Source: Candidatus Micrarchaeota archaeon
GTDB lineage: Archaea; Micrarchaeota; Micrarchaeia; Anstonellales; Bilamarchaeaceae
NCBI GenBank assembly: GCA_040754495.1
Contig: JBFMCO010000022.1
Location: 18,233 to 82,232 of the forward strand
Length of the DNA: 64,000 nucleotides
Reading direction: 5' to 3'
Below the pieces are notes generated by a model that saw nothing but the letters and a program-made list of their open reading frames with translations, did not search any database and was not told where the DNA came from. Position 1 is the first letter of the stretch. Every line of letters starts with the position of its first letter. Positions 357 to 23,028 of this stretch are shown piece after piece. The translations under genes and the position numbers were made by a program.

Positions 357-374
357 AAAGATTTATCCGTTTAT

Positions 375-540: not shown

Positions 541-541
541 T

Positions 542-564: not shown

Positions 565-654
565 CCAAAAAACTAATTGTTTGTCAACCCCCCGTGGTTA
601 CCATTTATCCAAAAAATCCAGCGGATTAAAAACGCGATTAGCGATAAAATATTC

Positions 655-1545
655 ATGTCACAGCCCCTGCAGAAGCCCGCGCAAGAGCACCAGCGCCTCC
701 AGACCACTCCCCGCATCCGCAGGCCTCCTTTCGTGATGTGCAGGGACATCGAGCAGGTGAGGGAGGTGCTGAGGATTTACGGCGCGATGGAGATGCACCT
801 GATGATGTCCGGAATCCTGGAGAACAGGAAGGAGATCGGGAGCCTCATGTATGCTTATGACGAGACTTCGAGGCAGGCGCTCGCGCGCGCCCCGCCGATG
901 GTGGTGAGGGTCCCGCAGGGCCTTCTGGACCAGCTTGCGATAGCCGGGGGCGCGAGCGGTGCCTACGTCCCGGGGACCAATATCGTCCTCGTGTCATCGT
1001 CGCCGGCCCGTTTCCCGGACGGGACGCCGCAGAGGGTGGAGGACATAATAACCCACGAGACTCTCCACTATCTCGACTATCTCCTTCATGCCAATCGCAT
1101 GGCCTTCAGGAGCCGGGGGCGGCTTGTGAATCCGGAGCCGCCGAGATTCTTCGACGAGGGAGCGACCAACTATGCTGCCCTCCAGGTCGTCAGCGGGATG
1201 CATCTGCCCGGAAACCGGGAAGCACCTGCCAACTACGCATATCCGACGGCAGTGATGGTGGCAATCGAGATGCTCGCAGGCATCGAAAGGCTGGCTCCGG
1301 CCATGCAGAGCGGCAACTGGGAGCATGTGCAGCAGGCAATCGACCAGAAGCTCGGCCAGGGCAGCTTCGAGCGGATACTGGATTGCGGCAACGGCGCGGA
1401 AGCCATCGGGCTCATACTGGAACTGGATAACGGCCAGCCCCCCTTTATAGACAGGCAGCTTCTCGAGCGGCATCCGGTCATGAGGAGGGCGAGGCGCGGA
1501 ATCGAGGCCATGAGGCCGCCGTCCATGGCGGGCCAGGAGATATGA
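655..1545 (+). CDS. hypothetical HExxH (zincin-like) protein, first gene of the giant-gene operon
   Basis: ORF 577..1545; the first ATG is at 655 (TTG at 577 is an alternative start). Motif IITHETLHYLDYLLH contains HETLH. Same strand as the two following genes and 71 nt upstream of the next. Confidence 0.6.
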   Translation: MSQPLQKPAQEHQRLQTTPRIRRPPFVMCRDIEQVREVLRIYGAMEMHLMMSGILENRKEIGSLMYAYDETSRQALARAPPMVVRVPQGLLDQLAIAGGASGAYVPGTNIVLVSSSPARFPDGTPQRVEDIITHETLHYLDYLLHANRMAFRSRGRLVNPEPPRFFDEGATNYAALQVVSGMHLPGNREAPANYAYPTAVMVAIEMLAGIERLAPAMQSGNWEHVQQAIDQKLGQGSFERILDCGNGAEAIGLILELDNGQPPFIDRQLLERHPVMRRARRGIEAMRPPSMAGQEI

Positions 1546-1616
1546 ATCGACCGGCGGTTCGCTAGCCATAAAAAGCGTCTCCTGCATATCCATTCGCCGC
1601 TCCGGGTGCGAACTAC

Positions 1617-1946
1617 ATGGCGAAGGAAAAAATCGACTGGTCACAGCCCCCCAACCCGTCACTGCCGTTTATCAGCCCGGAGAACATAGGCGAGGTCGAG
1701 AAGGAGGCGCTGGCGATGGCCAACAAGGCTATTTCTCTCCTTGAGCAGGCGATAGCAGCCTGGGACAACGCTAAGGACAAGCCGCCTGAGCTGAAAGGGA
1801 CGATTCAGAGGTACAGGCGGTTCCACGAGGCGCTGAGCGACTGGGAGAAAAGGATGCTGCAGTCCCTGGGGAAGGCGGATTTCAATGCCCGGGTGAGGAT
1901 GCTCGAGGAGTTCGTGAGGATAAGCAGGGCATACGAGGGTAACTGA
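1617..1946 (+). CDS. small helical hypothetical protein (109 aa), translationally coupled to the giant ORF
   Basis: ORF track. Its TGA stop (1944-1946) shares one base with the ATG (1946-1948) of the giant ORF (TGATG). Confidence 0.55.
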   Translation: MAKEKIDWSQPPNPSLPFISPENIGEVEKEALAMANKAISLLEQAIAAWDNAKDKPPELKGTIQRYRRFHEALSDWEKRMLQSLGKADFNARVRMLEEFVRISRAYEGN

Positions 1947-4900
1947 TGGGCCAGAAACCTGCGGAGAGGCAGCCCGAGGTGCGGGACGAAGGAGTCAGGG
2001 TCGCCCAGCCGCAGGTCCCGATGGTTCCGAGGGAACAGCCGCGCGGCGGCGCGAATGAAGCAGCCGCAAATGCCGCGACCGGCCTCGGCGTTATGGGCAA
2101 GTTCGCCGCGGTTCTCGATTTCATAATAGCAGACCCCAGCAGGGCCGAGGGGAGGCTCGCTGAATTCAGCCGGCGCCTGGAGCCGTACCGGGCGGATTAT
2201 CCCGAGGAGACGCGCATCGCCCTCGGCCTTTTCGGCGCCGCGTCACGAATGTACAGGGAAGCGCAGGACGCGCGGGCCCATGGAGACACGCAGCGCGCGC
2301 AGGAGCTGGAGGATTCCGCGAGGGCCCATTTCAGGGAGGGCATGGCGAAGGCCGGCTCCGTTCCCGGCATGGCGCAGGACATACACAGCCTGGCGGGTGC
2401 GGGAGCGTCGCCGGAATGGATTGAATCGCGCAAGGCGGCTTTCAACGACGTGGGGCTCGGGACGTGGAACAGGGCTATCGCCATCGACCAGGCGGTGGAG
2501 TGGCGGGTGAAGAACGACGCGATAATAGATGCCGGAGGCCCGGCTGCGCGGGAAGCAGAGGCCAGGATGCGCGATGAGGCAGTGAGGCTGGCCGAGGGCT
2601 CGAGGCAGGGCCAGGCCTTCAGCGAGCAGGATTATCAGGACACGATGAGGCGCTTTTCGGAGGCTTCCGCGCCTGTCACCGCCCTCGCAGCGCACATCCA
2701 CGGGGCGGCCGCGCTGTTCCACCAGGCCGCGATGAGGCAGGGCGTAAGCGAGCAGTACACGAAGGCGATGGAGGACCTGAAGAAGGAATTCGACAAGCTG
2801 CTCAAGAAGCTCGAGGAAGGGACCGCGACGAAGGAGGACGTGGAGAAGGCGAAGGAGCTGGCCGATGCAGTGAAGGCCGCTGAAACCGACCTAGAAGGGC
2901 TCTCGGGCGATGATGCAGTTACAGTCAGCGGAATCCATGCCCGCGGGCTCAGCGCCCTCAGGCAGGGGAAGGGAGAGATGGCGAGGGTGCAGCGCCAGCT
3001 CGCAAGGGAATACGCTAAAACGAAGGACCCCGGGATGAGGAAGAAGCTCGAGAGATGGAGCGCTGACCTCGCCAAGGGAAAGGCGCCGGAGGCCGAGTTG
3101 GAGAGGTGGCTGGAAGCGCAGAGGCCGGCGGAGTTCCGTGCGCTGACGACCGAAAACATAAAACGCGAAACCGCAGAAAGGGCGGGCCTGCTGCGGGAGA
3201 AGGGGTACGAGCGCAGCCATCCGCGCGAAACGAAAAGGATAGCTGAGCTGGACCGGGAAGCGGCCAAGGCGCTCGAAGAAGCGAAGGCATTGAGAAAAAG
3301 AGGCGACCTGGACGGCGCGGGGAAGCTCGAGGCGAAAGCGTTCAGGCTGCTTCGGGAGGCGAGGGCGAAAGTCCTCTGGCTCGAGCGGCTCGACAGGTTC
3401 CAGGCAAGGCTGGCCGGCATTAAGGAGCCTCCGGAAATGAAGAAGGCCGCGGAGGAGGTTTCGAAAGCGCTGGGCGGTGCATTCAATTTCATAGGGACGC
3501 AGGACGGGTGGCGGGCGAGGCTGGCATTCATCGCAGCGGACGTGTTCATCCGCTATGGCAAGGTTCTCCAGAGCAAGCCCGCGGCGCCGCTCCTCAAGGG
3601 CATCCTCAGCATCGTGGGCATCCTCTCGGACCCGAGGAAGAAGGTGGACGAGAAGAGGGCGCAGGAGGAGGTCGGAAGGCTGGAGCCGAAGGCGCTCTCT
3701 GCAGAGCTTGGCGGCCTCAAGGGCAAGGTCGATGACAAGGCGCATTCCAAGCTGACGGACGCGGTGAAGGCGGCATCAGGCTTCATAGGCACGAACCAGC
3801 AGTGGAGGGCAGCGTATCTCCTCAGGGGCGTGAAATTCTTCCTTGACAACCGGGAGAAGATTGGCACGCGGGGGAAGCTCTTCGAGGGCATCATGGGATT
3901 CCTCGGCAGGCTCGCCGACCCGAAGGGGGAGATAGGGGAAGAGGAGGCGAAGAGGGAGTTCGCGCGCATCACCGGGATACCTGCGGAAGCGCCGGCGCAG
4001 GCAGGCGGAAGACGGGAGGCGGCACTTACGGTAGCCGGCCTCAAGCAGGCCGGGGAAGGGTTCGAGAAGCGCCTCCGCGCCATACCAGGCCACGAGGAGC
4101 AGGTGCGCTCCATAACCGAAACAGTGAAGCTCGCCGGGGAGGAGTTCAGGGCTGGCAATGTGAAGAAGGCGCAGGAGCTCCTCGCGCTCGCGGAGAAGAA
4201 GGCCGCCGCCCTGGAAGGCGTAGTGGAGAGGGAAAAGAGGATAGACGCCTCAGGCGCGCCCGAGGAGGCGAGGGAGAAGCTGAAGAAGGCCGGCCTCGCG
4301 GCATTCAACGACTTGGGAAAGCAGAGCGGGGGAAGATTCGACACGGTAGTGAAGGCCACGGACCTGTTCCTGGGGGGGATGGAGCGGAAACTCTGGCTCC
4401 AGCCCGGCGGGGAGACGGCGGCCCTGAAGCTGCTCGATTTCATCGGCAGGCTGGGCGAAGGCGCGCTGCAGGGGCTGGAATTCGACTCCCAGGCCGCCGA
4501 ATCCGAGCTGTCTGATATATCGGCGCAGGCCGGGGAACTGTGGAAGGCGATGCTCGGCGCGTCCATCACCGAATGGCTCAGGCTGATAGAGGGATGGCGC
4601 ACGATGGGCGGGCTCGGCACGGCGAACGCGAAATTCCTGGACGACCTGGCAGAAAGCTACAGGGCGCTGCAGAAGCGGCTCGAGGAGGGCGCGAAGGCTG
4701 AGGACATCGAGCAGGAGGCATCGGCCCTCGAGGCGAGGGCGGAGCACGCGAAAAAAATCGGGGAGGAGCTCGAGGAAAGGGAGCGGGCGGTTGCGGTCTT
4801 CAGGGGGGACGTCGAGGACTTCAAGGCTGATACCGCTGCGTTCCGGGCATCCGAGCGGTTCAAAAAATACGCGGCCGATGCCGAGCCGTACGTGAAAAAG

Positions 4901-7900
4901 GCCGAGGAGTGGGAGGAGAAAGCGGCGACGTTCATGGCGGAAGCCGAGAAGCTGGAGGGCGACGCCAAGGCCGAGATGATAAAGAGGGCCGCTGATGCAG
5001 TGAAGCGCTCTGAGGAGCTGCTCGGCCACGCAGGGAAGATAATCGGGCTGCGGGAGGCCGGAGCGTCCGATGAGGTCGTTTCCGCGTACAGGAAGGCGGC
5101 GAATTCGTACATCGCAGTCTTCGAGCCGGCGCCGCCGGGGCTTGCAGGCGAGGCGCAGATATTTCCGGACGACGTTCTCGCCTACGCGGCAATCGTGTTC
5201 TCTGCAGCCGACAGCTACCTGTTCTTCAGGAAGCACGGGAGGGCCGAGGCGGAGAAGCGCGCCGAGAGGCTGGTTCTGGGCACGACCTTCGCCTCCCGCA
5301 TCGCGGATGCAGAAGCCGAGCTCAGGGGGCTGGACGGCGAGATGGAGTATGCCGAGGCTATTGACAGCGACACTGCGGCAAGGAAGCAGAAGCTCATGGA
5401 TTCCGCGACCGAACTCCGTGGCGACAAGAGGAAAGTCCCCAAGCCCCGCGAAGGCAGCGCGGAGTGGTACGGGCAGATGGCCCTCGATGCCTTGGAGCGG
5501 GGGGACTTCGCGGTTGCCGACCTGGCGGTGTATCGCGGCATGTTCGAGAAAGTGGCGCCTGGGGGCGGCAGGAACTACGTCCCGGAAGACATTGAGCGGG
5601 ACATAAGCGCGGTGCTCAGGGGAGAGAAGGTGCCGGCCGCCGGGGAACTGGACAGATACCTGACGCTCATAGATTCTGCTTCGCTGACCGCGCAAGCTGA
5701 CCTGCTGAAAAGGGACAACCCGGTTTCCGGCTCCGCGGAGGAGAGGGAGAGGAAGCAGAGGGTGCACAAGCTCGCTGAAGAAATAAAGAGGAGGGCGGAC
5801 GCGCACGATTTCGCGGGAGCGGAAAGGCTCCTTGAGATGGCGACGGTCTATACCGGCCTCGCAAGGGACAAGAAGTGGAAGGCGTTTGCCGGCGCGGACA
5901 GGATGGAGGCGGCCCTCGATGCCGAGCTTGCGGGCGGCGACCATTCCGGAGAGTTCCAGGCAGCGGTCGTGTACCAGAAGGCGAGCGAGGAGACGGCCTC
6001 GTTCCGCGCCTCGCTCGCGGATTGGGGAGCAGGGCTTGCAGAAAACAAAAAGCTCGTGGAGAGGGGCCTCCTGCGCGTGGAGCAGCTTGTCTCCGAAGGA
6101 AAGACCGAGGAGGCGGGCGCGCTCTTTGGTCAGCTCATGCTCTATGCCGGCGCGGTGAGGACCTTTGCCGCCCCGAAGAAAAGGGATGTGATACCCGGAT
6201 TCGACCCGGCATATGACAGCTCGAAGCTCGGAGGAATGGGCCTCGCGCTCGACGCGCTGATAAAGGGAGAGGCGGAGGTCGGCGGGAAGAAGCCGGAGGA
6301 GGTGTTCTCGCAGAGCTTCTTGGAGACGCAGAGGGAGTATCTCAACAAGAGGGCGGACGCGTATCTCAGGCTTTCAGAGAAAATGCCTGTCGGCGCGGAA
6401 ACGGTCGGGCAGGGGCTTGCCGAGGTACGGAGAAGGGCTGCGGAAGGGGACTTCGAGGGGGCACTGCGCCTGCTTGAGATGGCCGGCAACTACTACGGCG
6501 AGGCAGCCCCCGGCAAGCAGGCCGGGTGGAGATACAGGGATGCGACAAGGAAAGGGCCGGGCTACGAGAGGGGCAGGCAGGACATGCTGAACGCCATAAG
6601 CATGGAGATTGCGGCCAAGGACCCGGCGGACCATGACGAAGCTCTGGAGACGTTCAACAGCGGCAGTCAGAGAATATCTGTTGCAAAGGCCGCCATCGAG
6701 CGCTACGAAATCGTGGAGCGTAATATCTACAACGCCCTTCCGACAGCGGTGATAGACGAATGGGACCACCACGGCACGATTGCGCTGCGGGGGGAACCTA
6801 CACCCGAAAACGAGGAAGGGCCGGTGCTGGGCCGCGTAAGCATGGAAAAGATACGCAGGTACGAGAGCGAGCACCCCGATGATACGGCTCTCGGGGGAGG
6901 TCTGAGTCTCAAGACACTCCTTACGAAAATGAAAAAAGCGGCCGAAGAAGGGGACGACGAGGCATTCAGGAAATACGAGAAGGCGTTCTTCTCAAGGCTA
7001 TACCTGGTCGCTGGACGCATCTTGAGGCGGGAGCAGCTCGAGGAGAACAGGCAGGAGGTAAAAAAGTACATAGAGGTCCTCGAAGGCTTCACGGCGGCCA
7101 TTACAATCGACCAGCTTGTGCCTTACGGATGGCTGGAAGGGGACGATGAAAGGCTGAAGAAGGTCACGGCTCTTGAAAAACAGCTTAAAAATAACGAGAT
7201 AAGCAAGGCGGAGTTCGAGAGCAAGCTGAACGTGATTCTTTCCGAGCGCCTGCAGATGATAGAGCAGAACAAGTTCACGGACAAGGTCCCGGGGCCCATG
7301 AGGGAAACGGTCCGGCAGCTGGCGCCGAGGGCGAAGGCGTTGCTAGAGAGAGCCCGGGGCCTTTATGGCAAGCTCGAAAAGATGGACAACAACAGCAGTG
7401 AATTCCCGCTCGAGGAATACAAGCAGGTCGTAAAGGACTTGAGCGCGCTGACGGAGGAGTACCAGACACAGAGGAAGATTTCGGTCGCCTATTCACATAT
7501 CGACCAGCAGCTCCAGATGAATAAGAGCTACCATGAGGCCATCGCCGGAGAGGGCGCGTTAGCCTCGGATTACCCAGACGCTTATGGGAGGGCGGTCAAG
7601 TTCCTCGGCTTCTCGAACGGACATTTCAAAAAAGCCCAGGAGCTTCTCCTTAAAGGAGAGTTCAAACAGGCAGGCGCGGAGTTCGAGCGCGGTATAAACC
7701 GCCGCGAGTGGGCGCTGATGGAGGCCGACCCGAACGTGCTCTTCGGCCAGGCGAATACCTACCTTGGAAACCTCCCGATAAGCATGCTGACAGGAGTGCC
7801 CATCATCCCGGAATCCACGACAGCGATGGACGAGGTCAGCATGATCAAGCACAGGCCGGGCTGGGGCGTGCTGAAATTAGCCGCAAGGGGGAGGGGGGAG

Positions 7901-13900: not shown

Positions 13901-16900
13901 AGGCCGACGGAACTGCCGCCGGAGCTGCGCGGCATGCCGCCGGACGTTTCGTCCCAGGTCGGGATGGACGGGGCGCCAAAGGCAAGGCTGCTCTCGTCCG
14001 AGCCCCTGGGGCGCGGCTCGAGCGCGGACGTGTATCTTGCGGAAATGGTGATTGACGGAAGGCCGACCCGCGTCGCGGTGAAGATATACAAGAACCCGGA
14101 GGGAAACGGGACGTGGCAGGAGCGGGCAGAATATTTCGCGGACGAGGTGAGGAAAGCGAAGATCCTGGGCGATGCAGGCCTCGGCCCGAAGGTGTTCGGG
14201 ATTGCCGATGCGGGCGGGAACATGGCTTTCGCGATGGAGGTCATCGAAGGCAAGCCGATGTACATAGACGAGATGGCGCCCGGGCTCCGCGCGAAATACA
14301 TCAATGAGGACACGTTCGCGCAGGTCCGGAAAATGTATGACGAGCTGATAGCCCACGGATACGAAATCGGCGATTTCGATTTCATGATATTGACCGAAGG
14401 GCCGAATGCCGGCAGGGTTGTGTTCCTGGACGCCGGGGCGCTGCGGGAGGTGCCGCGCGGCGCCCAGGGCGAGCCACGGCCAAGGTACGGCGACGGCGCG
14501 AAGAGGGCGGAGGGCGGGAGGCTTCAGGCTGAGGCCATGACCGCCATGGAATATTTCACGAAGATGGACCGCGACGAGCTTGCCGCGGTAGCCGAGGTCT
14601 CGAAGGGCCTGCTCGGACAGGGCCATGTGGATTCGGACACCATGCGCCTGCTTGCGGTAAGATGGGGGAGCCGCGAGGGAAGGGCCAGGGCGATAGGAGA
14701 GTATATCACCAGTATCGCAGGGGCCGATGAGCAGAAGGCAAAGGCCACGTTCGACGCGCTGAAACGCATCGAGGCGGAAACCGGCATACGGCTGCTGCCG
14801 GATGGCGCGAGGTTCGAGGACCTTGCAGCCAGGGCGGGGGAGGGCGAGATATCGGAGGCGGAAATCATCGCGCCGATGTCAGGGGACGATTACCATGCCG
14901 CGCTCGCAGGGATGCGCACGCAGGCAGCACGCGAAAGCGTAGCGCTCCACTTCAGCGGAAGGGGCGAAATCCCGGACGCGGCCACCTTCGAAAATGCTGC
15001 CATACTGGCCGATGAGGCGGCAGGCGCGAAGGTGCCGGAGCAGGGCCAGGCCGAGCTGTCCGTATATTATGATGGGAACGGCAGGATAATCGGCATAGCG
15101 GATAACGAGCGGCTCTTCTACGGCGACCCCAAGGCGATAAATGACAAGACGCCGGAGGCGAAGGTCAGGGTGGACCTGGAGAGCGGCAGGATAGTCTCCA
15201 TGGACGAGCGCGGCATGAAGAACCCGCTCCTTGCGGACCTGGTAGGGCTGAGGATACTTCCGGGCAAGGGAGCGGAGGGCGCAGGGCCCGGCGGAAGGGG
15301 CCCGCCACCGTTGCCCCCGATGAAAGTGCTTGACGAAGGCAGCATAGTTTCGGCTTATGCAAGCGGGACAGGGCAGGCGCAGAGGACGAGGGCCGCCCGG
15401 TCGTTCGTGATGCTCGATGGCGAGGGGCAGGGGAGGGTGATATCGGAGCTGCGCTCCCAGGGCCGCCATGAAGAGGCCAGGCATCTTACCGAGCTGCAGG
15501 CGATAGGTGGGGAAGCCGGCGCAGGCATCGAAAGGGTTTACGGAATCCCGAGGGACGAGATTATCACGATATACGCGCGGGAGCCGACAGCCCAGGGCGC
15601 GAGGAAGGCGCTCGCGGAGAGGCTCGGCATCGTCATCCTGCCTTTCGAATGGGAGCATTATCCTGCGGACAGGAGGCAGTGGGTGTCCGTCCCGTACCGG
15701 GATTTCAGGTCTTTCGAGGACGACCACTTCCTCTTCGGGCTCATTACCTCAGGGAACATGATTGACACGGTCTCGCAGATGTATCCGGGAGGGAGGATAG
15801 CCTCCATAGAATACCATAACGGGGCGATAGGCGCTTACGAGGTCGCCATCAGGACGCAAAACGGGGAGACGCGCACCGTTTTCGTGAAGAGGCAGGATTT
15901 GCGCCCGGATGCGGCCGGCTCGGACTACTCGGTCCGCTCAGGCGTCCCGGCTCCTGAGGTCATCACCAGCGCCGGAGGCAGGGAGCTTACTTACGTCGGC
16001 CCGGACGGGGAGGTCTCGCGCTACGGCATTATAACCAACATGAGGGATTTCGGGGGGATGATGAGGTTCGGGGGAGTCGAGGCGCAGGTCAGGGCTACGG
16101 ACGAGACCGCGCTGTGGGACCTCGACAGGAGCCCCCTTGCCGGCTCGCTCATGTCTCAGGACCCGCAGGTGAGGGCGAAATTCTGGGAGGAGCTCGGCTA
16201 CATGCTGGCAGGCTCTTACGCGACCGGGATATGGGACAGGCATGCGGGAAACGCGCGCGCGATGGTCCTCGAGGTGCAGAACGCGGACGCGCACACGAAC
16301 CCCGCGGACCAATCATCACCGACAGTGGGCGAGGCGCTGTCGCAGAAGGGCTACTGGGTGTGGCAGCAGGACGGAAAGACGTACATGTTCATGATAGGCG
16401 GCATAGACACCGACACCGCGGCCAACTACCTTGCCGGCGAGGCGCACGGCAGCTTCGACATGACCGGCATGAACATAAGGTACGGCTATGTCGACCTCCA
16501 CAGCCTCTTTAACAGGCTAGCGACGATAAGAGGCACGAGCGTGGATGCGCTCGTCATGGAAGCCTTCGGCGATGTCAGCGGCGGTCAGGTGCCCGGCCCG
16601 GTCGCGATGGGCATGAAGAGGTGGTGGCGCGACTTCGGGAGCGACCCGCACTATGCCGATGAGATGGCCGGCCGGTTCTCCAGCCACGAAGGCGAGAGCA
16701 TAGGCTTCGGATACCCCAGGACCGAGCAGGAGCTGGACGTGATAAGGCAGGGGGGCGTGCTCCATCAGGAGAATCCGCAGAACGGCGACCCTTACACCAT
16801 CATCGCCTTCGCTGACGGCAGGTCTCGGATGAGGCCGGAATACGAGATAGTGCACCGTGAGGACATCGAAGCCCTCGACCCGCGCATAGCCGCGATGTTC

Positions 16901-19900
16901 CCTCCAGGGAGGGACATGTACGCCGTGGAGATAACCGGCGAGGTGCGGAAGGCCGTTCCGGACATAGACAAGAGGACGAACCGCATCCGGACCTCGGACG
17001 GCAGGATGGTCGCGATAATAGACTCGGCCGACCCGCTCGCGAAAACGCTGCTCGACGGGGGAATTCCTATGGTGAAGGCGAGGCGCGACATGCCCCGGCA
17101 GGGAGAAGTTGCCGTGGATGATGCGACCGGCATAATACGGGCCGCTCCAGGGTTCGGAAAGCTGACCGGAATCCAGGCCTACCAGGCCGGCCCGGTTCCG
17201 GTTTTCCGGGCGATGATGGGGGCAGGGGAGGGGTTCATGCTCGGGCAGTTCGCGCACATCGGCCATTATATATTGGCCAAGGAAACGAGCGTGAGGGAAG
17301 CCGCGCAGGTTCCTGCCGGAGTGGTGGCCGGGGAGATAGAAGCGCCGGGAATAGAGCGCATGCCCGCCCCGGCGCAGGTGGAAGGGGTAAGGGGCGGGAT
17401 GAGGGACCTGGTAGGGGCAGTCAGGTCCGGAGACGAGGGCAGGATAAGGGCCGCGGAAGCCGAGTACGATAAGAGGCTCGGAGTGCTGGCCAGGCTAAGG
17501 CCAGATACGGAACTGAGGGTCGTGGAAAACGAGACGCTGTTCGCGGACCTGGCTCCAGGGGGGCAGGCACAAGCGAAGGTGCTCGCGGCAGACTATCTCA
17601 GGAACAGGTCCGCAGGAAAGAAGCTTGACGGCGACCTGCTCGTCATCGACTACCTCGTATCGCATGGAATGAACGCGGTGGATGCGGCTGCGGCAGTCGT
17701 GAATCTGGGGGGCGCCGGGAAGGCGCCTGCCCCTGTGACGCTTCCGCCGTACGTTGCCGAGCACTTCGGGACCAGGCAGCCTGACCCGGTCACGGCTGAA
17801 AACGCGCTGATTCTTGCCGGGGACAGGAATACGCTCGGAAGATTGGGCATACCGGACGGCCTTGGCAGGGTCCTGAAAAGCGAGGGCATGGCTGTCGTGT
17901 CCGAAGGAAAGAGGATGACCGAGGTGAGAGGCTATTACGATCTGGAGAGCGGCAGGATAATATACCTCGGCAGGACGGACGCGCCAAGGGAGGTCACGGC
18001 GGGAGGAGTGGAGTTCGTCCTCCGTTTCGACCATGAGAGCGGGAGGGTATCCATTCCGGAAAGCGAGGACGTGCCGCTTCCGGATTCGATTGCCAGGCTG
18101 AACGGAATGCGCATTGCGCCCCCGCCCCAGGCAGTGCCGTTTGGCGTTTTCGGCATTTTCATGCCACTGTTCAAGTATTTCAGGAAGCCCCCGGCAGCCG
18201 CCCCGCAACCTGAGGCCGTGCCCATCAAGGTCCCGAGGTCCAGGAACGACATCCAGGGAAGGGCCGAGGGCATAAGGGGGCTGCCCCCGGACCAGCAGGC
18301 GCAGGAGCTTGCGGGGCTGCACGATGCCGTGGCCGCCGAGCATGGCGACGTTTATGCGAGGAATTACCGCGACATGATGGAGGAGCTGGTGAAGCATCCG
18401 GAGCATTCGGGCAGGATTCTCGACGAGTGGGAGGCGGTGAGGGCCGAGGAGAAGCATTACGAGGCGCTCGAGAGGGCGAGGAGGTATGCCTTCTCGGCCG
18501 CAGAGGGGTTCGGGATTGTCAGGGGGCAGGACAGGAAGCTCATATCAGGCGGAGAGTACGCGGCGGACATGGCACGCTCGAGGGGCGAGAAGCCCAAGGC
18601 ATTCCGGAAACGGCTCCTCGAAGCGTATGATGCCGGGTTCAGGAGAGGAGGCGTGCTCGATGCGAGGCTCGGCGTGGCAAATTCGCTGGGTGTGCTCGAC
18701 AATATAGTGGTAGAGTCGCGGCCGGGCGTCTTGGACGAAAAGAGGACGATGCAGGCGAGGAAGGAATTCATCAGGAAGAACCCGGAGTTCTTCGACCTAA
18801 TCATGAGGGGCGGACTCGAGGAGGTCATCTCCGCGAACCTCGGGGCCGGCGACGTGAGAATCGCAGGAGTCTCGCACGCGGGCGGCATGGCGCGGGGCGC
18901 GTACGGCGTGGAGGTCCTCCTTCCGGACGGCAGGAGGAAGCGCGTGTTCGTGAAGCTGGAGGACCTCGGGCCTGCCGCGTTCGGGGCTGATTTGGCCAGA
19001 GTCGAGGGCATGATTGCGCCGAAAGTCTTCACTGCGGATTCGCAGGGAAGGCCGCTCTCGTATGACGTGAGCTACAAGGACCCCATCGGAAAGAGGATGG
19101 TGAGCGGCCAGAGGCGCTTTGGCATCATGCTGGATGTCCGCGACACGGTAGGGCAGAAGGCCAGGGTGAGGACCGCGGACGGGAGGTTCAGGGAGATAAC
19201 GGTCACGAGCGTGGCGCTCGTTGGCGACGACATCTTCAATGCCAGGTCGCTTGACGGGATACCCCAGCCCTCCAGGGCCGCCGCGGAGGACTTCTGGACC
19301 GCAATGGGAAGCGAGGGCGGGCGCGAGGAGATGTTCAGGACGTGGTACGCGTACCAGGAGATGTCAAGGCGGGCCACCCTCAGCGACAGGCACACCGGGA
19401 ATTCGATGTACGTCATCGGCGTGACGTCGGATGGCGAGACCGTGAGGACGTTCCAGCCCATAGACCCGGACGATATCGGAGCCAAGGTCGAGGCCAGGCC
19501 GGAGGGCATGAACTTCAGCGAGTTCAACGATTTTTCCGCGCTCTACACGTCGAATTTCGTGAACGGCCTGTACCTCGCGTCGGATAACGCCGCGAGCCTC
19601 GGCCTGCTCAAATCCCCGATCAACCGCGCGCAAGCGAGCAGGGCAGCATCGAGCGACGCCGCGATGTCAGGGTGGAGGCTTCCGGAAGACCCCGGGTGGG
19701 TGAGGTCCGCGGCTGAGTTCATAATCATGGATTACGATGGCAAGCCGTTCGGCCTCGGAACGGACATGACGATAGGCGGGCACGGCTCGTACATAAAATA
19801 CCATGCCGGCAGGAGGAGGGCGGCAGGCTACGACGGCCGCGTCCGGATGTACTCGGACGAGATGCTGGCGGTTTATCGGGGAGCGCAGGACCCTGCCAAC

Positions 19901-22471
19901 GCGGCGGATGTCGCGCGCAGGGTGGATGAGCGGATGGGCTGGGAGAACGCCGGCCACATGAGGGCGCTTGAGCGGAGGTATCCGGACCTCGGCACCCTGC
20001 CTCCGCACATGCAGGAGTACAGGGAGCCCCTCGAGCGTGCGCGCAGGCGCATAGCGGGCGGCGAGAAGCCCGATGACGTTTACCTTGACGAGTCGAAGAG
20101 GATGCTGAGGGCTAATCCCCGGGAGAGGGCGAAGGCCGAGGACATAATCACGAGGCACGGGAGGGGCGTGGCAGACGCCGAGGTGTCCGCGGTCCTGGAG
20201 TTCCAGAAGAGAAACGGCATCGCGTCTTTCGAAGATGCGGCGTATGCATTCGTGAGACAGCAGGCCGCGCCGAAACCTCCAGCGGAACCGCTGCAGCCAT
20301 CCGAAGCCATTTACCGGAAGCATGAAGCGAATATTTTCGGCCCTGCCCGGGGGCAGCTTGGCAGCGAGCTCCTTGCCAGCCTGAGGGGCGCTGAGGAGAG
20401 GATAGCCGGCATGGTGCCTGAGGGGCCGGAGAGGGAGCGCGCGCTCAAAAGATGGGGCGAGTTTGCAGACCGGGCGCTCTCGCGCATCGCCGATCTCCCG
20501 GCACCCGAGCGCGCGGACGCGCTGGCGCGCTTCATGATAGCGGGCGACTATCTCCTCACAAGGGCGGCTGAGAACCCGGCGCGCACGAAGGCATGGCTCG
20601 ATTTCATCGCCGACAACCCGAACGCCGTCGAATACGCCATGCTCGCCAAACGAGGTCTCGACATAAGGGCGCAGGACATAGTCGTGGCCGAAATCCGCCC
20701 CAGCATCCATGACATGTCTGACAGGAAAGCGCTGAAGAAGGCCCTCGGGAAGAGGGTATCGTTCATGGAGGACGTGATACGCGAGATACCGGAAAGGTGG
20801 TTCATGGAGGCGGGGGTGAGGCGCGATTATATGATGGACCTTGCAGGTTCCGACCCGCTCAGGGCGGCGGCCGAGCTCGACCGCGTCACGATGCCGCACG
20901 GAATCAGTGTTGTGAGGAAGGCAACGGGCGTGTACCTCGCAGAGGTCTCGCACACGTTCTCGCTGCATGGCCAGCCGGACATCCGGGGCCTCGTAATAAC
21001 CGGCGCTTACGGGACGGGCGACATGTTCGACGGCATGACCGCGTATTTCAATCCCCTCAGCGGCAGGATTTTCATGCGCGGGACTGCCCATTTCGCGGAG
21101 GCCGGCATACCGGAATCCGCGCTTCCGGGCATGAAGATGACGTACGTGCATGAGATGCAGCACCTGCTCGACAACGCCGGCGGGTATGTCGCGGCACTCT
21201 CGGCCAGGTCTGCAGGGCGCGGAATGGCCTTCATGCCGGAATACCGCGCCAGGCTCGAGACCACGGCGGTCGCGAGAGAGGTCCTGGAGATGGTTCCCCG
21301 GCTGGGGGGCCGCGGGACCGAGGATGCCATCAACGCAGCCATCAGGAAGGACCCGGAGGAATACAAGCAGGCTTACAGGAAGGCGCTGGACGCCATGCGC
21401 ACAGGCGAGGACGGAAGGCCCGACCCGGACTGGGCGGGCAGGCCGCCCGAGGTTCTGCAGAACCGGCTGAGGAAGCTTATAGACGACGAATACCGGAGCC
21501 TTATGCCGCTGAGCTATACCGAGCTCTACGGGCCGACAACCGCAGGGATCGTCCGCGGGGAGATCACGGTCAGGAAGCCGGCCGCCCCCGAGGCCGTTCC
21601 CTTCAAGCCCGCCGTAGCCGCGGACTCGGCTCCGGGACGCGGGGAGCCGGACCTGCTGCGCTCTGCCAAGTATGAAAATGGAATCCTGACGATAGAGGCG
21701 GATTACCTGGGAGGCGAGCTTGCACATGCGGTGAAGCCGCAATTCGCCGAATCCGCGGTGAATGGCGAGTTCATCCCTTCCGGCGACAGGACAAAGCCGA
21801 GCGGCCTGTGGCTCTCGTGGGGCTCCGGCTGGGATTACTTCACAGGGAGCAACCCCGGCCTGATGTTCAAAGGCACCGTGAAGTTCAGGGCCGAGATGAG
21901 GTCCGGATTGAAGCTCTTCCTGCTTGACGGGCGCGAATCTTTCGATAGCATGATGGCCGAATTCCGGCGGGAAGTTAAGGTCGCCGAGACAACGGGGAGC
22001 GGGTATCCGGATGGCACCTGGCCTGATAACAACTGGGTGTACTACGAGAAGAGCCCATGGCAGTGGCTTAGGGAAAGGGGCTATGACGGCGTGGCCGTGA
22101 CGGAGGAGGGATATCTGGATACCAATTTCCAGTTCGGCTGGGACGCGGCCTCCATAGTCATTTTCGAGCCTGCGGGCAATGTGCGCCTGCCTGGAGGCGA
22201 AGCCAGGCTGGAGGAGTACAGGAAGGGTGCCCAGGGCAGCGCGGACGCCATGCTGCCCCTTATTGAAGAGGCAGGCCTGCCGTTATTCGGCCCGAATAAG
22301 GCGTATGACCTCATAGAGGCGTACGCCGGCGGCAGGGCTGAGCGCAGCCCGGGAAAGCGCATCGATGCCGAGGATGAGGCTTTCCTTAAAAAGCTCCTGG
22401 ACGAGAAACCGGGCCTTGAAGAGGCTGCGAAAAGGATTATCGAATACGTTAGAAAGAGGGAAGGGGGATAG
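1946..22471 (+). CDS. giant multidomain protein, 6,841 aa (repetitive helical region, hydrophobic cluster, 3 atypical kinase-like modules, 1 ePK/RIO-like module, HExxH site, unassigned C-terminal domain)
   Basis: Single uninterrupted ORF in the track. Competing ORFs inside it are antisense or off-frame, low-complexity Arg/Pro/Ser/Ala-rich shadows. Several catalytic-type motifs are conserved (see sub-features). Confidence 0.85.
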   Translation: MGQKPAERQPEVRDEGVRVAQPQVPMVPREQPRGGANEAAANAATGLGVMGKFAAVLDFIIADPSRAEGRLAEFSRRLEPYRADYPEETRIALGLFGAASRMYREAQDARAHGDTQRAQELEDSARAHFREGMAKAGSVPGMAQDIHSLAGAGASPEWIESRKAAFNDVGLGTWNRAIAIDQAVEWRVKNDAIIDAGGPAAREAEARMRDEAVRLAEGSRQGQAFSEQDYQDTMRRFSEASAPVTALAAHIHGAAALFHQAAMRQGVSEQYTKAMEDLKKEFDKLLKKLEEGTATKEDVEKAKELADAVKAAETDLEGLSGDDAVTVSGIHARGLSALRQGKGEMARVQRQLAREYAKTKDPGMRKKLERWSADLAKGKAPEAELERWLEAQRPAEFRALTTENIKRETAERAGLLREKGYERSHPRETKRIAELDREAAKALEEAKALRKRGDLDGAGKLEAKAFRLLREARAKVLWLERLDRFQARLAGIKEPPEMKKAAEEVSKALGGAFNFIGTQDGWRARLAFIAADVFIRYGKVLQSKPAAPLLKGILSIVGILSDPRKKVDEKRAQEEVGRLEPKALSAELGGLKGKVDDKAHSKLTDAVKAASGFIGTNQQWRAAYLLRGVKFFLDNREKIGTRGKLFEGIMGFLGRLADPKGEIGEEEAKREFARITGIPAEAPAQAGGRREAALTVAGLKQAGEGFEKRLRAIPGHEEQVRSITETVKLAGEEFRAGNVKKAQELLALAEKKAAALEGVVEREKRIDASGAPEEAREKLKKAGLAAFNDLGKQSGGRFDTVVKATDLFLGGMERKLWLQPGGETAALKLLDFIGRLGEGALQGLEFDSQAAESELSDISAQAGELWKAMLGASITEWLRLIEGWRTMGGLGTANAKFLDDLAESYRALQKRLEEGAKAEDIEQEASALEARAEHAKKIGEELEERERAVAVFRGDVEDFKADTAAFRASERFKKYAADAEPYVKKAEEWEEKAATFMAEAEKLEGDAKAEMIKRAADAVKRSEELLGHAGKIIGLREAGASDEVVSAYRKAANSYIAVFEPAPPGLAGEAQIFPDDVLAYAAIVFSAADSYLFFRKHGRAEAEKRAERLVLGTTFASRIADAEAELRGLDGEMEYAEAIDSDTAARKQKLMDSATELRGDKRKVPKPREGSAEWYGQMALDALERGDFAVADLAVYRGMFEKVAPGGGRNYVPEDIERDISAVLRGEKVPAAGELDRYLTLIDSASLTAQADLLKRDNPVSGSAEERERKQRVHKLAEEIKRRADAHDFAGAERLLEMATVYTGLARDKKWKAFAGADRMEAALDAELAGGDHSGEFQAAVVYQKASEETASFRASLADWGAGLAENKKLVERGLLRVEQLVSEGKTEEAGALFGQLMLYAGAVRTFAAPKKRDVIPGFDPAYDSSKLGGMGLALDALIKGEAEVGGKKPEEVFSQSFLETQREYLNKRADAYLRLSEKMPVGAETVGQGLAEVRRRAAEGDFEGALRLLEMAGNYYGEAAPGKQAGWRYRDATRKGPGYERGRQDMLNAISMEIAAKDPADHDEALETFNSGSQRISVAKAAIERYEIVERNIYNALPTAVIDEWDHHGTIALRGEPTPENEEGPVLGRVSMEKIRRYESEHPDDTALGGGLSLKTLLTKMKKAAEEGDDEAFRKYEKAFFSRLYLVAGRILRREQLEENRQEVKKYIEVLEGFTAAITIDQLVPYGWLEGDDERLKKVTALEKQLKNNEISKAEFESKLNVILSERLQMIEQNKFTDKVPGPMRETVRQLAPRAKALLERARGLYGKLEKMDNNSSEFPLEEYKQVVKDLSALTEEYQTQRKISVAYSHIDQQLQMNKSYHEAIAGEGALASDYPDAYGRAVKFLGFSNGHFKKAQELLLKGEFKQAGAEFERGINRREWALMEADPNVLFGQANTYLGNLPISMLTGVPIIPESTTAMDEVSMIKHRPGWGVLKLAARGRGEDPYKYTYGWAKQQMENDQDVNLGNPARPDYVKDPQQSWAYYNYSPITEYGADFMGYEELGGRLWNSVLEGDGRKVQRYQKQMLVMEASVFYIPVDTFIDGINSKITYKDWQKRIHFQAMYNGDLAYDELFGDWGLMDARTGAKIAEGVGMFALSIATMGLGSVGFVVGGGKMLWDAIDGIQKDLAKYGEVTTMSWVNLGLTVVGLGASAAAGRLVKASQTAIEAAKLGDAAKFTTQVARAGRFATAARVVAYTDITVNVIGMVPQFYYGIKLMAEGKYAEGTQQLAFGAFSAFMAYHGGVQQLRGMRGLKTEIAKMGALREAHAKAPEVFASLSTPEGMFSFLQRVRARDPVSLVIYDNLPKPQRILFDGMLADRNVVSALKKNDIGLARGAFDSGLETFKQLSDLGGTRALTDAAHLGTQAGLEPFMRDLLIPESATGPQRTRRDAAYARLGEMKKRPETAEAAATIETLLKDKDVQKGNETGVLKIGWAADEIRSQQMQTINRYTDSVVSGEQARLGLYSSEGEAARANAKRIGDSYLAYARARSEGKPFDWDYHAKRMGMGPEDAKKLFAKLDAVPDARTVAGVISREGVRQAVRNRVALDGRAILGDTPLTELAGEGALFSRWGELTPEDLFGMALNRRERAAEELEGAGRETDGRLAAAKRERATALSREADALDAEVKRRQAPEEVLTPDSLRSGAKEKFGRAQRLRSEGRDEEAFALESEARRSIALAADLEKFGEYGIVRATPDGQFIHRDFPDRRFTRAELDDAAILVRAIRKRGVPTDKRLLAIYDALPKEVKKDYRGGEDALMKSVLDVIYSRRGQAAEAAAPVLRSEELPVPSDPALAAVAGMTVPGTNLRWGVIPPDQVLQWQAKVYEAYKAAYGKIGLIYDSPEAMFAKNPEVLVATDGEGRIVAFTILKKTAFGTKLSLVGAVPDIPEGRAAARAMIQGFPALEGAYITAPGAPAHLAIKAGVPVVPYDSARIIQGEVPAEAGSPGAYQNGEGKWVRQEAQRGDGPEGMAAISRMPGFADSELVKHAIAQDGVKPGAKPEELTWNDLVEQAVKMGELPDRPEVRQNAFAVPMVINGKPEIVVKVMFGKPPADALEVRSVLQSRGIGGQVAADAINLYKIFNGEQVPLEVASRYMDVTLHDQYTRIKQEKIASGMPETKADAEALVEVAKSMAPRAGEGGLEAGGPISQEGVELLRMAEGKLDLVEGLTGADVAKATLDWSQPRLEMLRILTVEGSPYRERFLAADPAERAVIADAIARGATPERAFLKAAEGMVPADGRKLLEVGERLKGLPEAERNLRLRDLESLNPALGRMLKRLADPATPETVKQEIAAEWDSAVAGAERHKRVNEARAARDAAQLAEQELALLKGTPDEQAAGRVPAWIESAAKARGKDPAALHEALVKAYGEGGTEGRLRVLNELGALGGMPEGVRSTFVQNSPEFFELIVRGGLEGRVAAMPGFEGGIIVNAEKLEGLRGAYKIDVEMPDGSKRSLFVKAEDLVPAQLGSELAGGHGLLPPVIHAADGQGMPFTYDTGIRYTDPVSGQETAHMQEFGIMEDVHDYATARHSDVIMLPDGRSAQVTVESVAVVSREVFADPARMQAILADEHHPAHKVVKAFWELAKTEEGRQRIFQAWRAYHELSRRAMLLDRFDRNTVAVLVTTPEGESVLTFQPIDMDYVAGKIGSDGDLRFFNDDFASASVDFATKIAGAAGVPAETVLGEMAKAYGSDSVFPREAADERAAAAASVRATLNKYDGKPFGAGYDVEDYGKTIGKDYVEYGGRDRIVGRRDGRAILHAGDITPLGERIGGAEAEADFSRFNREKFERMAKPLEEAAPPPAVEAQPPAGEKTPPGKRGAGNVTPPARPGAMRGAPAGGPRTVPGKRGAGGGEPVAAPGGRRKVAIGGGEVELEPAPERAPELAAMKISEDELSQLGVSYQGLYQDGAGRRLNVFETEAGGERRLVAIPADLSGKAMLDAIGAEVRALGRPTELPPELRGMPPDVSSQVGMDGAPKARLLSSEPLGRGSSADVYLAEMVIDGRPTRVAVKIYKNPEGNGTWQERAEYFADEVRKAKILGDAGLGPKVFGIADAGGNMAFAMEVIEGKPMYIDEMAPGLRAKYINEDTFAQVRKMYDELIAHGYEIGDFDFMILTEGPNAGRVVFLDAGALREVPRGAQGEPRPRYGDGAKRAEGGRLQAEAMTAMEYFTKMDRDELAAVAEVSKGLLGQGHVDSDTMRLLAVRWGSREGRARAIGEYITSIAGADEQKAKATFDALKRIEAETGIRLLPDGARFEDLAARAGEGEISEAEIIAPMSGDDYHAALAGMRTQAARESVALHFSGRGEIPDAATFENAAILADEAAGAKVPEQGQAELSVYYDGNGRIIGIADNERLFYGDPKAINDKTPEAKVRVDLESGRIVSMDERGMKNPLLADLVGLRILPGKGAEGAGPGGRGPPPLPPMKVLDEGSIVSAYASGTGQAQRTRAARSFVMLDGEGQGRVISELRSQGRHEEARHLTELQAIGGEAGAGIERVYGIPRDEIITIYAREPTAQGARKALAERLGIVILPFEWEHYPADRRQWVSVPYRDFRSFEDDHFLFGLITSGNMIDTVSQMYPGGRIASIEYHNGAIGAYEVAIRTQNGETRTVFVKRQDLRPDAAGSDYSVRSGVPAPEVITSAGGRELTYVGPDGEVSRYGIITNMRDFGGMMRFGGVEAQVRATDETALWDLDRSPLAGSLMSQDPQVRAKFWEELGYMLAGSYATGIWDRHAGNARAMVLEVQNADAHTNPADQSSPTVGEALSQKGYWVWQQDGKTYMFMIGGIDTDTAANYLAGEAHGSFDMTGMNIRYGYVDLHSLFNRLATIRGTSVDALVMEAFGDVSGGQVPGPVAMGMKRWWRDFGSDPHYADEMAGRFSSHEGESIGFGYPRTEQELDVIRQGGVLHQENPQNGDPYTIIAFADGRSRMRPEYEIVHREDIEALDPRIAAMFPPGRDMYAVEITGEVRKAVPDIDKRTNRIRTSDGRMVAIIDSADPLAKTLLDGGIPMVKARRDMPRQGEVAVDDATGIIRAAPGFGKLTGIQAYQAGPVPVFRAMMGAGEGFMLGQFAHIGHYILAKETSVREAAQVPAGVVAGEIEAPGIERMPAPAQVEGVRGGMRDLVGAVRSGDEGRIRAAEAEYDKRLGVLARLRPDTELRVVENETLFADLAPGGQAQAKVLAADYLRNRSAGKKLDGDLLVIDYLVSHGMNAVDAAAAVVNLGGAGKAPAPVTLPPYVAEHFGTRQPDPVTAENALILAGDRNTLGRLGIPDGLGRVLKSEGMAVVSEGKRMTEVRGYYDLESGRIIYLGRTDAPREVTAGGVEFVLRFDHESGRVSIPESEDVPLPDSIARLNGMRIAPPPQAVPFGVFGIFMPLFKYFRKPPAAAPQPEAVPIKVPRSRNDIQGRAEGIRGLPPDQQAQELAGLHDAVAAEHGDVYARNYRDMMEELVKHPEHSGRILDEWEAVRAEEKHYEALERARRYAFSAAEGFGIVRGQDRKLISGGEYAADMARSRGEKPKAFRKRLLEAYDAGFRRGGVLDARLGVANSLGVLDNIVVESRPGVLDEKRTMQARKEFIRKNPEFFDLIMRGGLEEVISANLGAGDVRIAGVSHAGGMARGAYGVEVLLPDGRRKRVFVKLEDLGPAAFGADLARVEGMIAPKVFTADSQGRPLSYDVSYKDPIGKRMVSGQRRFGIMLDVRDTVGQKARVRTADGRFREITVTSVALVGDDIFNARSLDGIPQPSRAAAEDFWTAMGSEGGREEMFRTWYAYQEMSRRATLSDRHTGNSMYVIGVTSDGETVRTFQPIDPDDIGAKVEARPEGMNFSEFNDFSALYTSNFVNGLYLASDNAASLGLLKSPINRAQASRAASSDAAMSGWRLPEDPGWVRSAAEFIIMDYDGKPFGLGTDMTIGGHGSYIKYHAGRRRAAGYDGRVRMYSDEMLAVYRGAQDPANAADVARRVDERMGWENAGHMRALERRYPDLGTLPPHMQEYREPLERARRRIAGGEKPDDVYLDESKRMLRANPRERAKAEDIITRHGRGVADAEVSAVLEFQKRNGIASFEDAAYAFVRQQAAPKPPAEPLQPSEAIYRKHEANIFGPARGQLGSELLASLRGAEERIAGMVPEGPERERALKRWGEFADRALSRIADLPAPERADALARFMIAGDYLLTRAAENPARTKAWLDFIADNPNAVEYAMLAKRGLDIRAQDIVVAEIRPSIHDMSDRKALKKALGKRVSFMEDVIREIPERWFMEAGVRRDYMMDLAGSDPLRAAAELDRVTMPHGISVVRKATGVYLAEVSHTFSLHGQPDIRGLVITGAYGTGDMFDGMTAYFNPLSGRIFMRGTAHFAEAGIPESALPGMKMTYVHEMQHLLDNAGGYVAALSARSAGRGMAFMPEYRARLETTAVAREVLEMVPRLGGRGTEDAINAAIRKDPEEYKQAYRKALDAMRTGEDGRPDPDWAGRPPEVLQNRLRKLIDDEYRSLMPLSYTELYGPTTAGIVRGEITVRKPAAPEAVPFKPAVAADSAPGRGEPDLLRSAKYENGILTIEADYLGGELAHAVKPQFAESAVNGEFIPSGDRTKPSGLWLSWGSGWDYFTGSNPGLMFKGTVKFRAEMRSGLKLFLLDGRESFDSMMAEFRREVKVAETTGSGYPDGTWPDNNWVYYEKSPWQWLRERGYDGVAVTEEGYLDTNFQFGWDAASIVIFEPAGNVRLPGGEARLEEYRKGAQGSADAMLPLIEEAGLPLFGPNKAYDLIEAYAGGRAERSPGKRIDAEDEAFLKKLLDEKPGLEEAAKRIIEYVRKREGG
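8330..8800 (+). other. hydrophobic/Gly-rich cluster (probable membrane-spanning segments) inside giant ORF
   Basis: Translations such as GVGMFALSIATMGLGSVGFVVGGG, WVNLGLTVVGLGASAAAG and LAFGAFSAFMAYHGG. This is the only strongly hydrophobic stretch I saw in the 6,841 aa. Confidence 0.45.
12245..13370 (+). other. atypical kinase-like module A of giant ORF (catalytic-loop His replaced)
   Basis: FVQNSPEFFELIVRGG... SLFVKAEDLVPAQLG (Lys codon 12428-12430) ... LLDRFDRNTV (12887-12904) ... FQPIDMDYV (12962-12973) ... KYDGKPFGAGYD. Collinear with modules B and C. Confidence 0.55.
13970..14470 (+). other. ePK/RIO/Bud32-like small kinase-like module of giant ORF
   Basis: Gly-rich loop LGRGSSADVY (from 14006), VAVKIYK (Lys codon 14081-14083), AHGYEIGDFDFMIL (Asp 14372-14374), VVFLDAGAL (Asp 14429-14431). 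No Asn follows the putative catalytic Asp. Confidence 0.5.
15790..16720 (+). other. atypical kinase-like module B of giant ORF
   Basis: GAYEVAIRTQNGETRTVFVKRQDLRPDAAG (Lys 15887-15889), GIWDRHAGNARAM (16235-16252), MIGGIDTDTA (16400-16414). Confidence 0.55.
18767..19880 (+). other. atypical kinase-like module C of giant ORF
   Basis: FIRKNPEFFDLIMRGG... GAYGVEVLLPDGRRKRVFVKLEDLGPAAFG (Lys 18953-18955), LSDRHTGNSMYV (19385-19402), FQPIDPDDIG (19457-19471), DYDGKPFGLGTD. Confidence 0.55.
21149..21163 (+). other. HExxH motif (HEMQH) in the C-terminal region of giant ORF
   Basis: MKMTYVHEMQHLLDNAG. cat gag atg cag cac lies in the giant-ORF frame. Confidence 0.5.
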
Positions 22472-23026: not shown

Positions 23027-23028
23027 CG

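Follow-up and report, generated by a model that had tools for sequence, protein, structure and literature searches.

The 64,000-nucleotide stretch of Candidatus Micrarchaeota archaeon DNA analysed in this study (contig JBFMCO010000022.1; hereafter the window) contains, near its left end, a gene for a protein of 6841 aa without a single cysteine (the giant ORF, 1946..22471, + strand), preceded on the same strand by two small genes, ORF1 (655..1545) and ORF2 (1617..1946). Our analysis suggests, with a probability of roughly 0.55, that the conserved core of this locus is the small coupled protein ORF2 together with the giant, a cysteine-free modular protein of effector type, and that the two zincin-like (HExxH) modules of the locus, one encoded by ORF1 (type B) and the other located within the giant (type A), are optional cargo rather than a maturation machine.

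The ORF scan of the window placed the three genes, the 71-nt gap between ORF1 and ORF2 (1546-1616) and the TGATG at 1944-1948, in which the ORF2 stop codon TGA (1944-1946) shares one base with the ATG of the giant (1946-1948), exactly where an earlier description of this DNA made from its letters (the sequence-only reading) had put them. That reading had interpreted the three genes as a co-transcribed and translationally coupled operon, in which ORF1 would be a dedicated zincin-like partner that may process or mature the giant product. In the following, L001-L012 denote fetched contigs of relatives and P-numbers denote family proteins obtained by the searches.

ORF2 encodes a protein of 109 aa, also lacking cysteine, which has eight database homologs (37-94% identity) and two more that were recognised in the fetched loci. 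An ORF2 homolog is located immediately 5' of, and on the same strand as, a very large gene in the window and in L001, L004, L005-L007, L010 and L012. The product of this large gene has at least 6403 aa in L004, 7238 aa in L005-L007, 3637 aa in L010 (P0046) and 4855 aa in L012 (P0040), and in L008 the gene following ORF2 is cut by the contig end. The two genes overlap or are separated by 4-5 nt at the junctions in the window, L001, L004 and L005. ORF2 and the giant are a conserved and tightly coupled pair, found in five lineages, and all named relatives of both proteins come from organisms labelled Candidatus Micrarchaeota archaeon. Scans of metagenome contigs with ORF2 and giant N-terminal alignments yielded no further relatives. 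ORF2 was also considered as an internal segment of the giants and rejected, as the ORF2 profile gave no match at 1e-4 in the architecture scan; a lone BLASTP match of ORF2 to giant aa 3212-3306 (E = 0.05) was not reproduced. In some relatives the ORF2-giant pair is preceded, at a distance of a few kb, by a second giant gene (1-6145 in L005/L006 and 46-5013 in L004), the L005/L006 product having 7252-7261 aa and a weak Metallophos match, while the window contains one giant gene.

ORF1 accompanies the ORF2-giant pair only in the window and in L001, a 4-kb contig that repeats the order tRNA-ORF1-ORF2-giant at 93-94% nucleotide identity to the window. A tblastn search of both strands detected no ORF1 homolog elsewhere in the ORF2-giant loci except for one match internal to a giant gene that is described below; the search covered up to 10 kb upstream in L004, L005-L007 and L010, and shorter flanks in L008 and L012. 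Nor was an HExxH motif present in any called upstream gene of the relatives' ORF2-giant loci. The co-occurrence of all three genes in related genomes, which the sequence-only reading had named as a check of its proposal, is not conserved, and ORF1 as the dedicated partner in a conserved three-gene operon was not supported.

The ORF1-ORF2 spacer (1546..1616, + strand) is a candidate for a separate promoter of ORF2 and the giant. Its ORF2-proximal part of about 65 nt is kept in L001, including an A/T-rich promoter-like box, CCATAAAAAGC (1566-1576), whereas the total spacer length is 221 nt in L001 versus 71 nt in the window, with the extra 150 nt inserted straight after the ORF1 stop codon. In the other relatives, ORF2 would have to be transcribed from its own promoter because divergent genes precede it there, and A/T-rich TATA-like boxes were seen 11-38 nt before the ORF2 ATG. 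As judged from these elements, ORF2 and the giant very probably have a promoter of their own. Read-through from ORF1 into ORF2 may occur, since the spacer contains no oligo-T terminator. The earlier claim of tight coupling was borne out for ORF2 and the giant, whose adjacency is kept in five lineages, and was not supported for ORF1 in view of the variable spacer and the promoter-like box beside ORF2.

The longest reading frame of ORF1 extends from a TTG at 577 to 1545, and its true start is very probably the ATG at 655, yielding 296 aa, because the gene call in L001 is equally long and indels relative to L001 occur upstream of 655. Comparison with L001 revealed 16 synonymous and 19 non-synonymous changes (dN/dS 0.36, binomial p = 0.0036; 2.0 in the shifted-frame control), which identifies ORF1 as a real gene on which purifying selection acts. 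The L001 protein, 95% identical, was its sole homolog among 5.8 billion proteins, and ORF1 gave no match in Pfam, NCBIfam, PDB, PADLOC or PHROGs. Its HETLH motif (aa 134-138, nt 1054-1068), noted in the sequence-only reading, is present and falls within THETLHYLDYLLH (aa 133-145); the motifs VPGTNIVLV and DEGAT are also present, the Glu of the latter being E168 (nt 1156-1158).

A tblastn search of ORF1 against all fetched loci identified one match, which falls within the giant gene carried by L011 (E = 4e-13; 29% identity over 258 aa). By phmmer, ORF1 aa 69-262 aligned with aa 1220-1415 of P0014 and aa 4700-4895 of P0063, a protein of 7173 aa (E = 2e-15). VPGTN(I/L)VLV, THETLHY and DEG(A/I)T are kept between ORF1 and the P0014/P0063 segment; THETLHY and DEGxT, with the Glu at +30 from the second His, are the same in ORF1, P0001 and the P0014/P0063 segment, three distinct sequences at 32% overall identity. 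In P0014/P0063 this type B module is in-frame within the giant, with KIN modules (described below) on both sides. On these alignments, ORF1 represents, in detached form, a module that another giant of the family carries as an in-frame fusion. It thereby provides a fusion/fission ("Rosetta stone") case, in which one genome encodes the module on its own and another encodes it as part of a giant. Through the fused homolog in P0014/P0063, ORF1 joins the giant family as one further module; this connection is no demonstration that ORF1 is a maturation protease.

These results bear on the proposal that ORF1 shares a transcript with ORF2 and the giant and serves as a dedicated zincin for processing or maturing the giant in trans. 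The proximity of ORF1 to ORF2 on the same strand with no obvious oligo-T terminator between them, the purifying selection on ORF1, and the functional link with the family implied by the fusion of its homolog into another giant would all be consistent with such a role. However, ORF1 is missing at every other ORF2-giant locus examined (L004, L005-L007, L010, L008 and L012), it has the one near-identical homolog, the spacer varies in length and carries the conserved promoter-like element beside ORF2, and the fused type B module sits among modules of cargo type, which would not be expected for a trans-acting maturase. Processing in trans by ORF1 is therefore considered very unlikely.

The single HExxH motif of the giant, HEMQH (aa 6402-6406, nt 21149-21163), is located where the sequence-only reading had reported it, within the type A module (aa 6139-6541; 20360..21568, + strand). 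An alignment of 11 sequences was built from the window copy and ten further copies of about 400 aa from eight proteins, with two copies each in P0011 and P0012, and with P0035, P0050, P0054 and P0055 as carriers that are not giants. H6402, E6403, H6406, G6413, E6438, T6440, A6443 and Y6516 are invariant among the 11 copies, which are 23-48% identical to the window copy, and the shared pattern is Y-x-HE-x-QH ... E-T-T-A-x-A-R-E. E6438 (nt 21257-21259) lies at +32 from the second His of the motif. An AlphaFold2 model computed on this alignment (mean pLDDT 86.8, pTM 0.85) consisted, in order, of a helical N-terminal part, a five-stranded sheet, the HExxH helix (263-281 in the model) and a long helix bearing the Glu (297-338). 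Based on this model, type A is probably a new, divergent member of the zincin-like fold class. The window copy had no match in Pfam, NCBIfam or PDB, and single members of the alignment gave sub-threshold matches to DUF6782 and Peptidase_M78. Of the profile and structure searches suggested in the sequence-only reading, those for type A provided conserved residues and a zincin-like model and returned no family match; the ORF1 model, computed on an alignment of depth 2, was too poor to use (pLDDT 38.6).

It might be argued that both HExxH motifs are structural or chance features of helical proteins and that neither protein is a metallopeptidase. In composition-preserving shuffles the expected number of HExxH motifs was 0.098 in the giant and 0.014 in ORF1, the chance of one in the giant being about 9%, so the motifs alone are only mildly unusual and neither is decisive by itself. 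The absence of significant peptidase-family matches in Pfam, NCBIfam and PDB sequences, and the non-significant Foldseek result for type A, agree with this alternative. Against it stand the invariance of H, E, H and the downstream Glu in the 11 type A copies in spite of their low identity, and the retention of HExxH and the Glu at +30 in type B. Because both motifs are kept in homologs, chance does not explain them, and a non-catalytic nature is considered very unlikely. Metal binding and catalysis would be predicted properties of both modules.

As had been surmised from their sequences, neither HExxH context is a duplicate of the other. BLASTP detected nothing between ORF1 and the HExxH region of the giant, and hhalign of type A against type B returned a probability of about 3%, with an alignment of a strand and the HExxH helix alone. 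The two module types are apparently unrelated, and both appear to be new families of zincin-like modules. The possibility that ORF1 derives from the HExxH module of the giant as a divergent copy was considered and rejected, with hmmsearch E-values of about 0.03-0.06 in a one-sequence search and the same hhalign result.

Type A was present in nine of the 29 large family proteins. The giants of L002 and L003 (g2 and g3), whose full C-terminal part is known, contain neither type A nor an HExxH motif anywhere, and the type A module is optional in giants. With regard to what the sequence-only reading had listed as grounds for refutation, giant homologs without an upstream HExxH partner do exist, as do two full-length homologs without HExxH, while other homologs keep the motif. 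Type A also occurs free-standing in P0054 (724 aa, L009 10001-12175), which has no giant nearby. Its location near genes for a tyrosine integrase, a Fic protein and HTH_10 regulators suggests that type A also travels on mobile elements of other archaea. In P0055 (746 aa, from a JGI metagenome), type A is fused to two FHA (phosphopeptide-binding) domains, and the giants join type A with kinase-like modules. The type A module had no relatives in the viral-contig scan. A phage or defence-system origin was considered and rejected, as ORF1, ORF2 and type A gave no signal in PHROGs or PADLOC and no viral contigs were found.

Alternatively, type A might be a cis-acting autoprocessing protease that frees the neighbouring modules after delivery, as the CPD does in MARTX and large clostridial toxins. 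Multi-effector toxins such as MARTX and TcdA/B use built-in proteases, type A is embedded among enzyme-like modules, its active-site-like residues are invariant, and P0011 and P0012 each carry two copies with other segments between them, all of which would fit this role. Yet type A is missing from most giants, among them g3 (full-length) and g2 (complete in its C-terminal part), and those giants would have no means of processing. It also occurs without a giant nearby (P0054) or fused to FHA domains (P0055), and no conserved inter-module cleavage motif was seen, although no search was aimed at one. Both processing alternatives, in cis by type A and in trans by ORF1, are weakened because the respective modules are absent from many giants of the family; that type A acts in cis is considered unlikely, though less so than processing by ORF1.

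The interpretation as a conserved pair carrying optional cargo is also consistent with the anatomy of the giant and its relatives. An exhaustive HMMER search with giant aa 5491-6690 as query found 51 relatives, many of them of 3000-7300 aa. A word-index protein search with the last 1442 aa of the giant found no match, probably because most relatives exceed 5000 aa or because the candidate limit was reached. According to an architecture map of the 29 large family proteins, the number, order and identity of modules vary from giant to giant. In the window, the giant consists of an N-terminal helical-repeat region of about 2000 aa, a central Gly-rich hydrophobic cluster, and a C-terminal module array of about 4500 aa with three KIN copies, one protein-kinase-like module, the one type A module and a C-terminal domain. 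Neither the whole protein nor its segments contained a Pfam or NCBIfam domain, and searches of ORF1, ORF2 and giant segments against Pfam, NCBIfam, PDB sequences, PADLOC and PHROGs returned essentially nothing except a PD-T4-6 match for aa 3986-4270.

Cysteine is absent from all 6841 positions of the giant versus a frequency of 1.67% in the annotated genes of the window (P about 1e-50), and this scarcity is family-wide (0-0.3%). The first 320 codons of the giant had a dN/dS of 0.28 relative to L001. The coding strand of the giant gene is strongly purine-rich, with a GC skew of about +0.09 to +0.20 and an AT skew of about +0.12 to +0.28. The N-terminus is charged, and no classical signal peptide was recognised by eye. 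The N-terminal region is helical, rich in Ala, Glu, Lys and Arg, and internally repeated; its helical-repeat stretch at aa ~71-809 (2156..4372, + strand), which includes a repeated 'F(I/Y)GT..(E/D)WR' unit, has counterparts in P0010, P0011, P0020 and P0023. The central Gly-rich hydrophobic cluster (aa ~2120-2330; 8303..8935, + strand) was located by hydropathy scans and is a candidate membrane-insertion region; many family members have, at a comparable mid-protein position, two hydrophobic segments separated by about 50 aa. The C-terminal domain (aa 6591-6841; 21716..22468, + strand) is also contained in P0046 and P0061, and free-standing proteins of 134-190 aa correspond to its N-terminal part; no family match was obtained for the domain in Pfam, PADLOC or PHROGs.

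The KIN repeat was recognised by self-BLAST of the giant. Copy 1 (aa 3429-3714; 12230..13087) carries G..GAY, VFVKxEDL, DRFDRN and IDMD, copy 2 (15731..17374) is a variant with DRHAGN and IDTD in which the repeat proper (aa 4596-4705) is followed by a C-terminal extension to aa 5143, and copy 3 (aa 5594-5888; 18725..19609) carries DRHTGN and IDPD, all on the + strand. The three copies are 34-37% identical, and the copy 2 block is the best conserved part of the giant in the comparison with L002 (50% identity). In 36 copies from the family, the motifs G..GAY, VFVKxEDL, DRxxxN and IDxD are invariant or nearly so; the D, R, N and 'D.D' are invariant, and the Lys of VFVK occurs commonly, though not in every copy. 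These motifs, which are ordered as kinase subdomains, resemble those of PI3K/PI4K-type kinases, and KIN may be an atypical kinase; Pfam and PDB profile searches gave no match of KIN to PF00454 or to PDB kinases. The separate protein-kinase-like module (aa 3986-4270; 13901..14755, + strand), with an N-lobe of RIO/ePK type (GRGSSADVY...VAVKIYK), matched PADLOC PD-T4-6 kinase models (best E = 3.3e-5) and, very weakly, StkP and Rio1 in PDB. This module is also present in P0010, P0014 and P0063.

Taken as a mechanism, these features suggest that the giant may serve a host-dependent archaeon as an effector array or in cell-cell interaction. The central hydrophobic cluster would insert in a membrane, the enzyme modules, including both zinc-protease-like ones, would act on targets in or on a partner cell, and ORF2 might be a dedicated chaperone or adaptor that is made stoichiometrically with the giant. 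Membrane insertion, the targets and the role of ORF2 are predicted here from sequence features. Several points weigh against this interpretation. No signal peptide or known secretion system was recognised for the giant. The fold match of type A was moderate and Foldseek returned nothing significant. The zincin nature of ORF1 is read from motif conservation in three distinct sequences, and the KIN modules are possibly kinases by the logic of their motifs, without a profile or structural match. In addition, the family sample is biased, since the query contained KIN and type A, and many members are contig-cut fragments, which makes the proportion of nine in 29 a rough figure.

A broader extension of this interpretation, which we regard as tentative, would have the giants of Micrarchaeota, a DPANN lineage, constitute undescribed, cysteine-free and self-contained multi-enzyme effectors with which these symbionts manipulate or feed on their hosts, in function an archaeal counterpart of MARTX and large clostridial toxins. 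In it, a hydrophobic hairpin would insert into the membrane, kinase-like modules and two new zincin-like families would be the cargo, swapping between fused and free-standing forms (the latter represented by ORF1), and ORF2 would be the dedicated, translationally coupled chaperone.

The surroundings of the locus were also examined. The sequence has a G+C content of about 62%. The upstream boundary of the ORF1 unit is a tRNA-Leu(UAA) gene (374..543, + strand) with an 83-nt intron at the canonical position 37/38, followed by a hairpin and a T-run. It was found by ARAGORN only with introns allowed; ARAGORN with default settings called a tRNA-Gly(CCC) at 461-540, and the Rfam tRNA model missed it. 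Upstream of this gene, positions 1-369 of the window are unrelated to positions 1-1392 of L001 despite the 93% identity of the remainder, so the tRNA marks a variable junction. A partial ORF at the left edge (1-315, + strand) resembles by eye a fragment of a LAGLIDADG-type homing endonuclease; the 71-aa ORF at 100-315 had no Pfam match, and L001 has another gene, of 340 aa, in that position.

On the other side, five tandem small genes encoding 165-182 aa (22490..25228, - strand) are convergent with the giant. Three of them are clearly paralogous to one another, and two match only neighbour genes in relatives. They gave no Pfam, PADLOC or meaningful PHROGs match and have no transmembrane segments. 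The five genes are part of a conserved neighbourhood, because their homologs flank the giant genes of relatives (L004, L005, L010 and L011). Other neighbours are archaeal housekeeping genes, including those for the DNA polymerase II (PolD) large subunit DP2, CysRS, a PurN-type formyltransferase, a GT2 glycosyltransferase, RpiA and a GMP synthase C-domain, and many other ORFs of the window had no match in Pfam. The DP2 gene (31778-36658, - strand) carries an intein with a LAGLIDADG domain, and the G+C content falls to about 51% around 32-34 kb, inside this gene. Together with CysRS and the intron-bearing tRNA-Leu, DP2 with its intein points to an archaeal chromosome. A partial tRNA match at 42984-43041 (- strand; Rfam, 30 bits, model positions 10-63), not called by ARAGORN, may represent an intron-containing or split tRNA.

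Among known enzymes, type A resembles the gluzincins of the MA clan, such as dipeptidyl-peptidase III (M49, PDB 5zum), in having the HExxH helix after a beta-sheet and an invariant Glu on the next helix. The nearest Pfam models are DUF6782, a 'putative metallopeptidase', and Peptidase_M78, both matched weakly and by single members. Unlike gluzincins, type A has no significant peptidase-family or Foldseek match, possesses its own helical N-terminal part of about 190 residues, and occurs mainly as a cassette in giants. For type B the apparent likeness to gluzincins is one of motif. The KIN modules carry G-rich, VFVK-x-EDL, DRxxxN and IDxD motifs whose arrangement follows the kinase subdomains and is reminiscent of PI3K/PI4K kinases, with no Pfam or PDB-profile match, and the separate module at aa 3986-4270 resembles RIO/ePK kinases through its PD-T4-6 match.

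As a whole, the giant is similar to MARTX, large clostridial and polymorphic toxins, in that a single very large polypeptide carries an enzyme-like array that varies between relatives, has a hydrophobic region upstream of the array, is extremely poor in cysteine, and is composed of modules that also occur free-standing. It differs from these bacterial toxins in being encoded by an archaeon. Pfam and NCBIfam searches detected no RTX glycine-rich, RHS or filamentous repeats, no CPD and no known trafficking domain in the giant, and no genes for a T1SS, T6SS or other secretion system were recognised among its neighbours in the window. Polymorphic toxins would be expected to have an immunity gene downstream on the same strand, whereas five convergent small genes are found here. 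Because none of the defining domains or secretion genes of these toxins is present, the giant is not a member of any of the three groups.

To our knowledge, the means by which DPANN archaea attach to their hosts, exploit them or control them are largely unclear, and giant proteins, described so far mainly for nanohaloarchaea, are among the few candidate tools for this interaction. The SPEARE giants of Nanohaloarchaeota, which also belong to DPANN, are strain-variable proteins of 5,000-9,400 aa with a proposed role in host interaction; they have a Sec signal peptide, Ig-like/fibronectin-like domains and a VirB4/TraG-like ATPase domain, and adjoin a second gene for a VirB4-family ATPase (PMC10266531). 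The giant described here resembles SPEARE in being a giant protein of a DPANN archaeon and differs from it in the absence of a Sec signal (by eye) and of an Ig-like or VirB4/TraG domain (Pfam); there is no sequence relationship between the two, and no paper describing the present family was found in the literature searched. In conclusion, this locus defines a separate family of giant proteins, characterised by a conserved small partner, avoidance of cysteine, a central hydrophobic cluster, and shuffled enzyme-like modules that lie outside current Pfam annotation.

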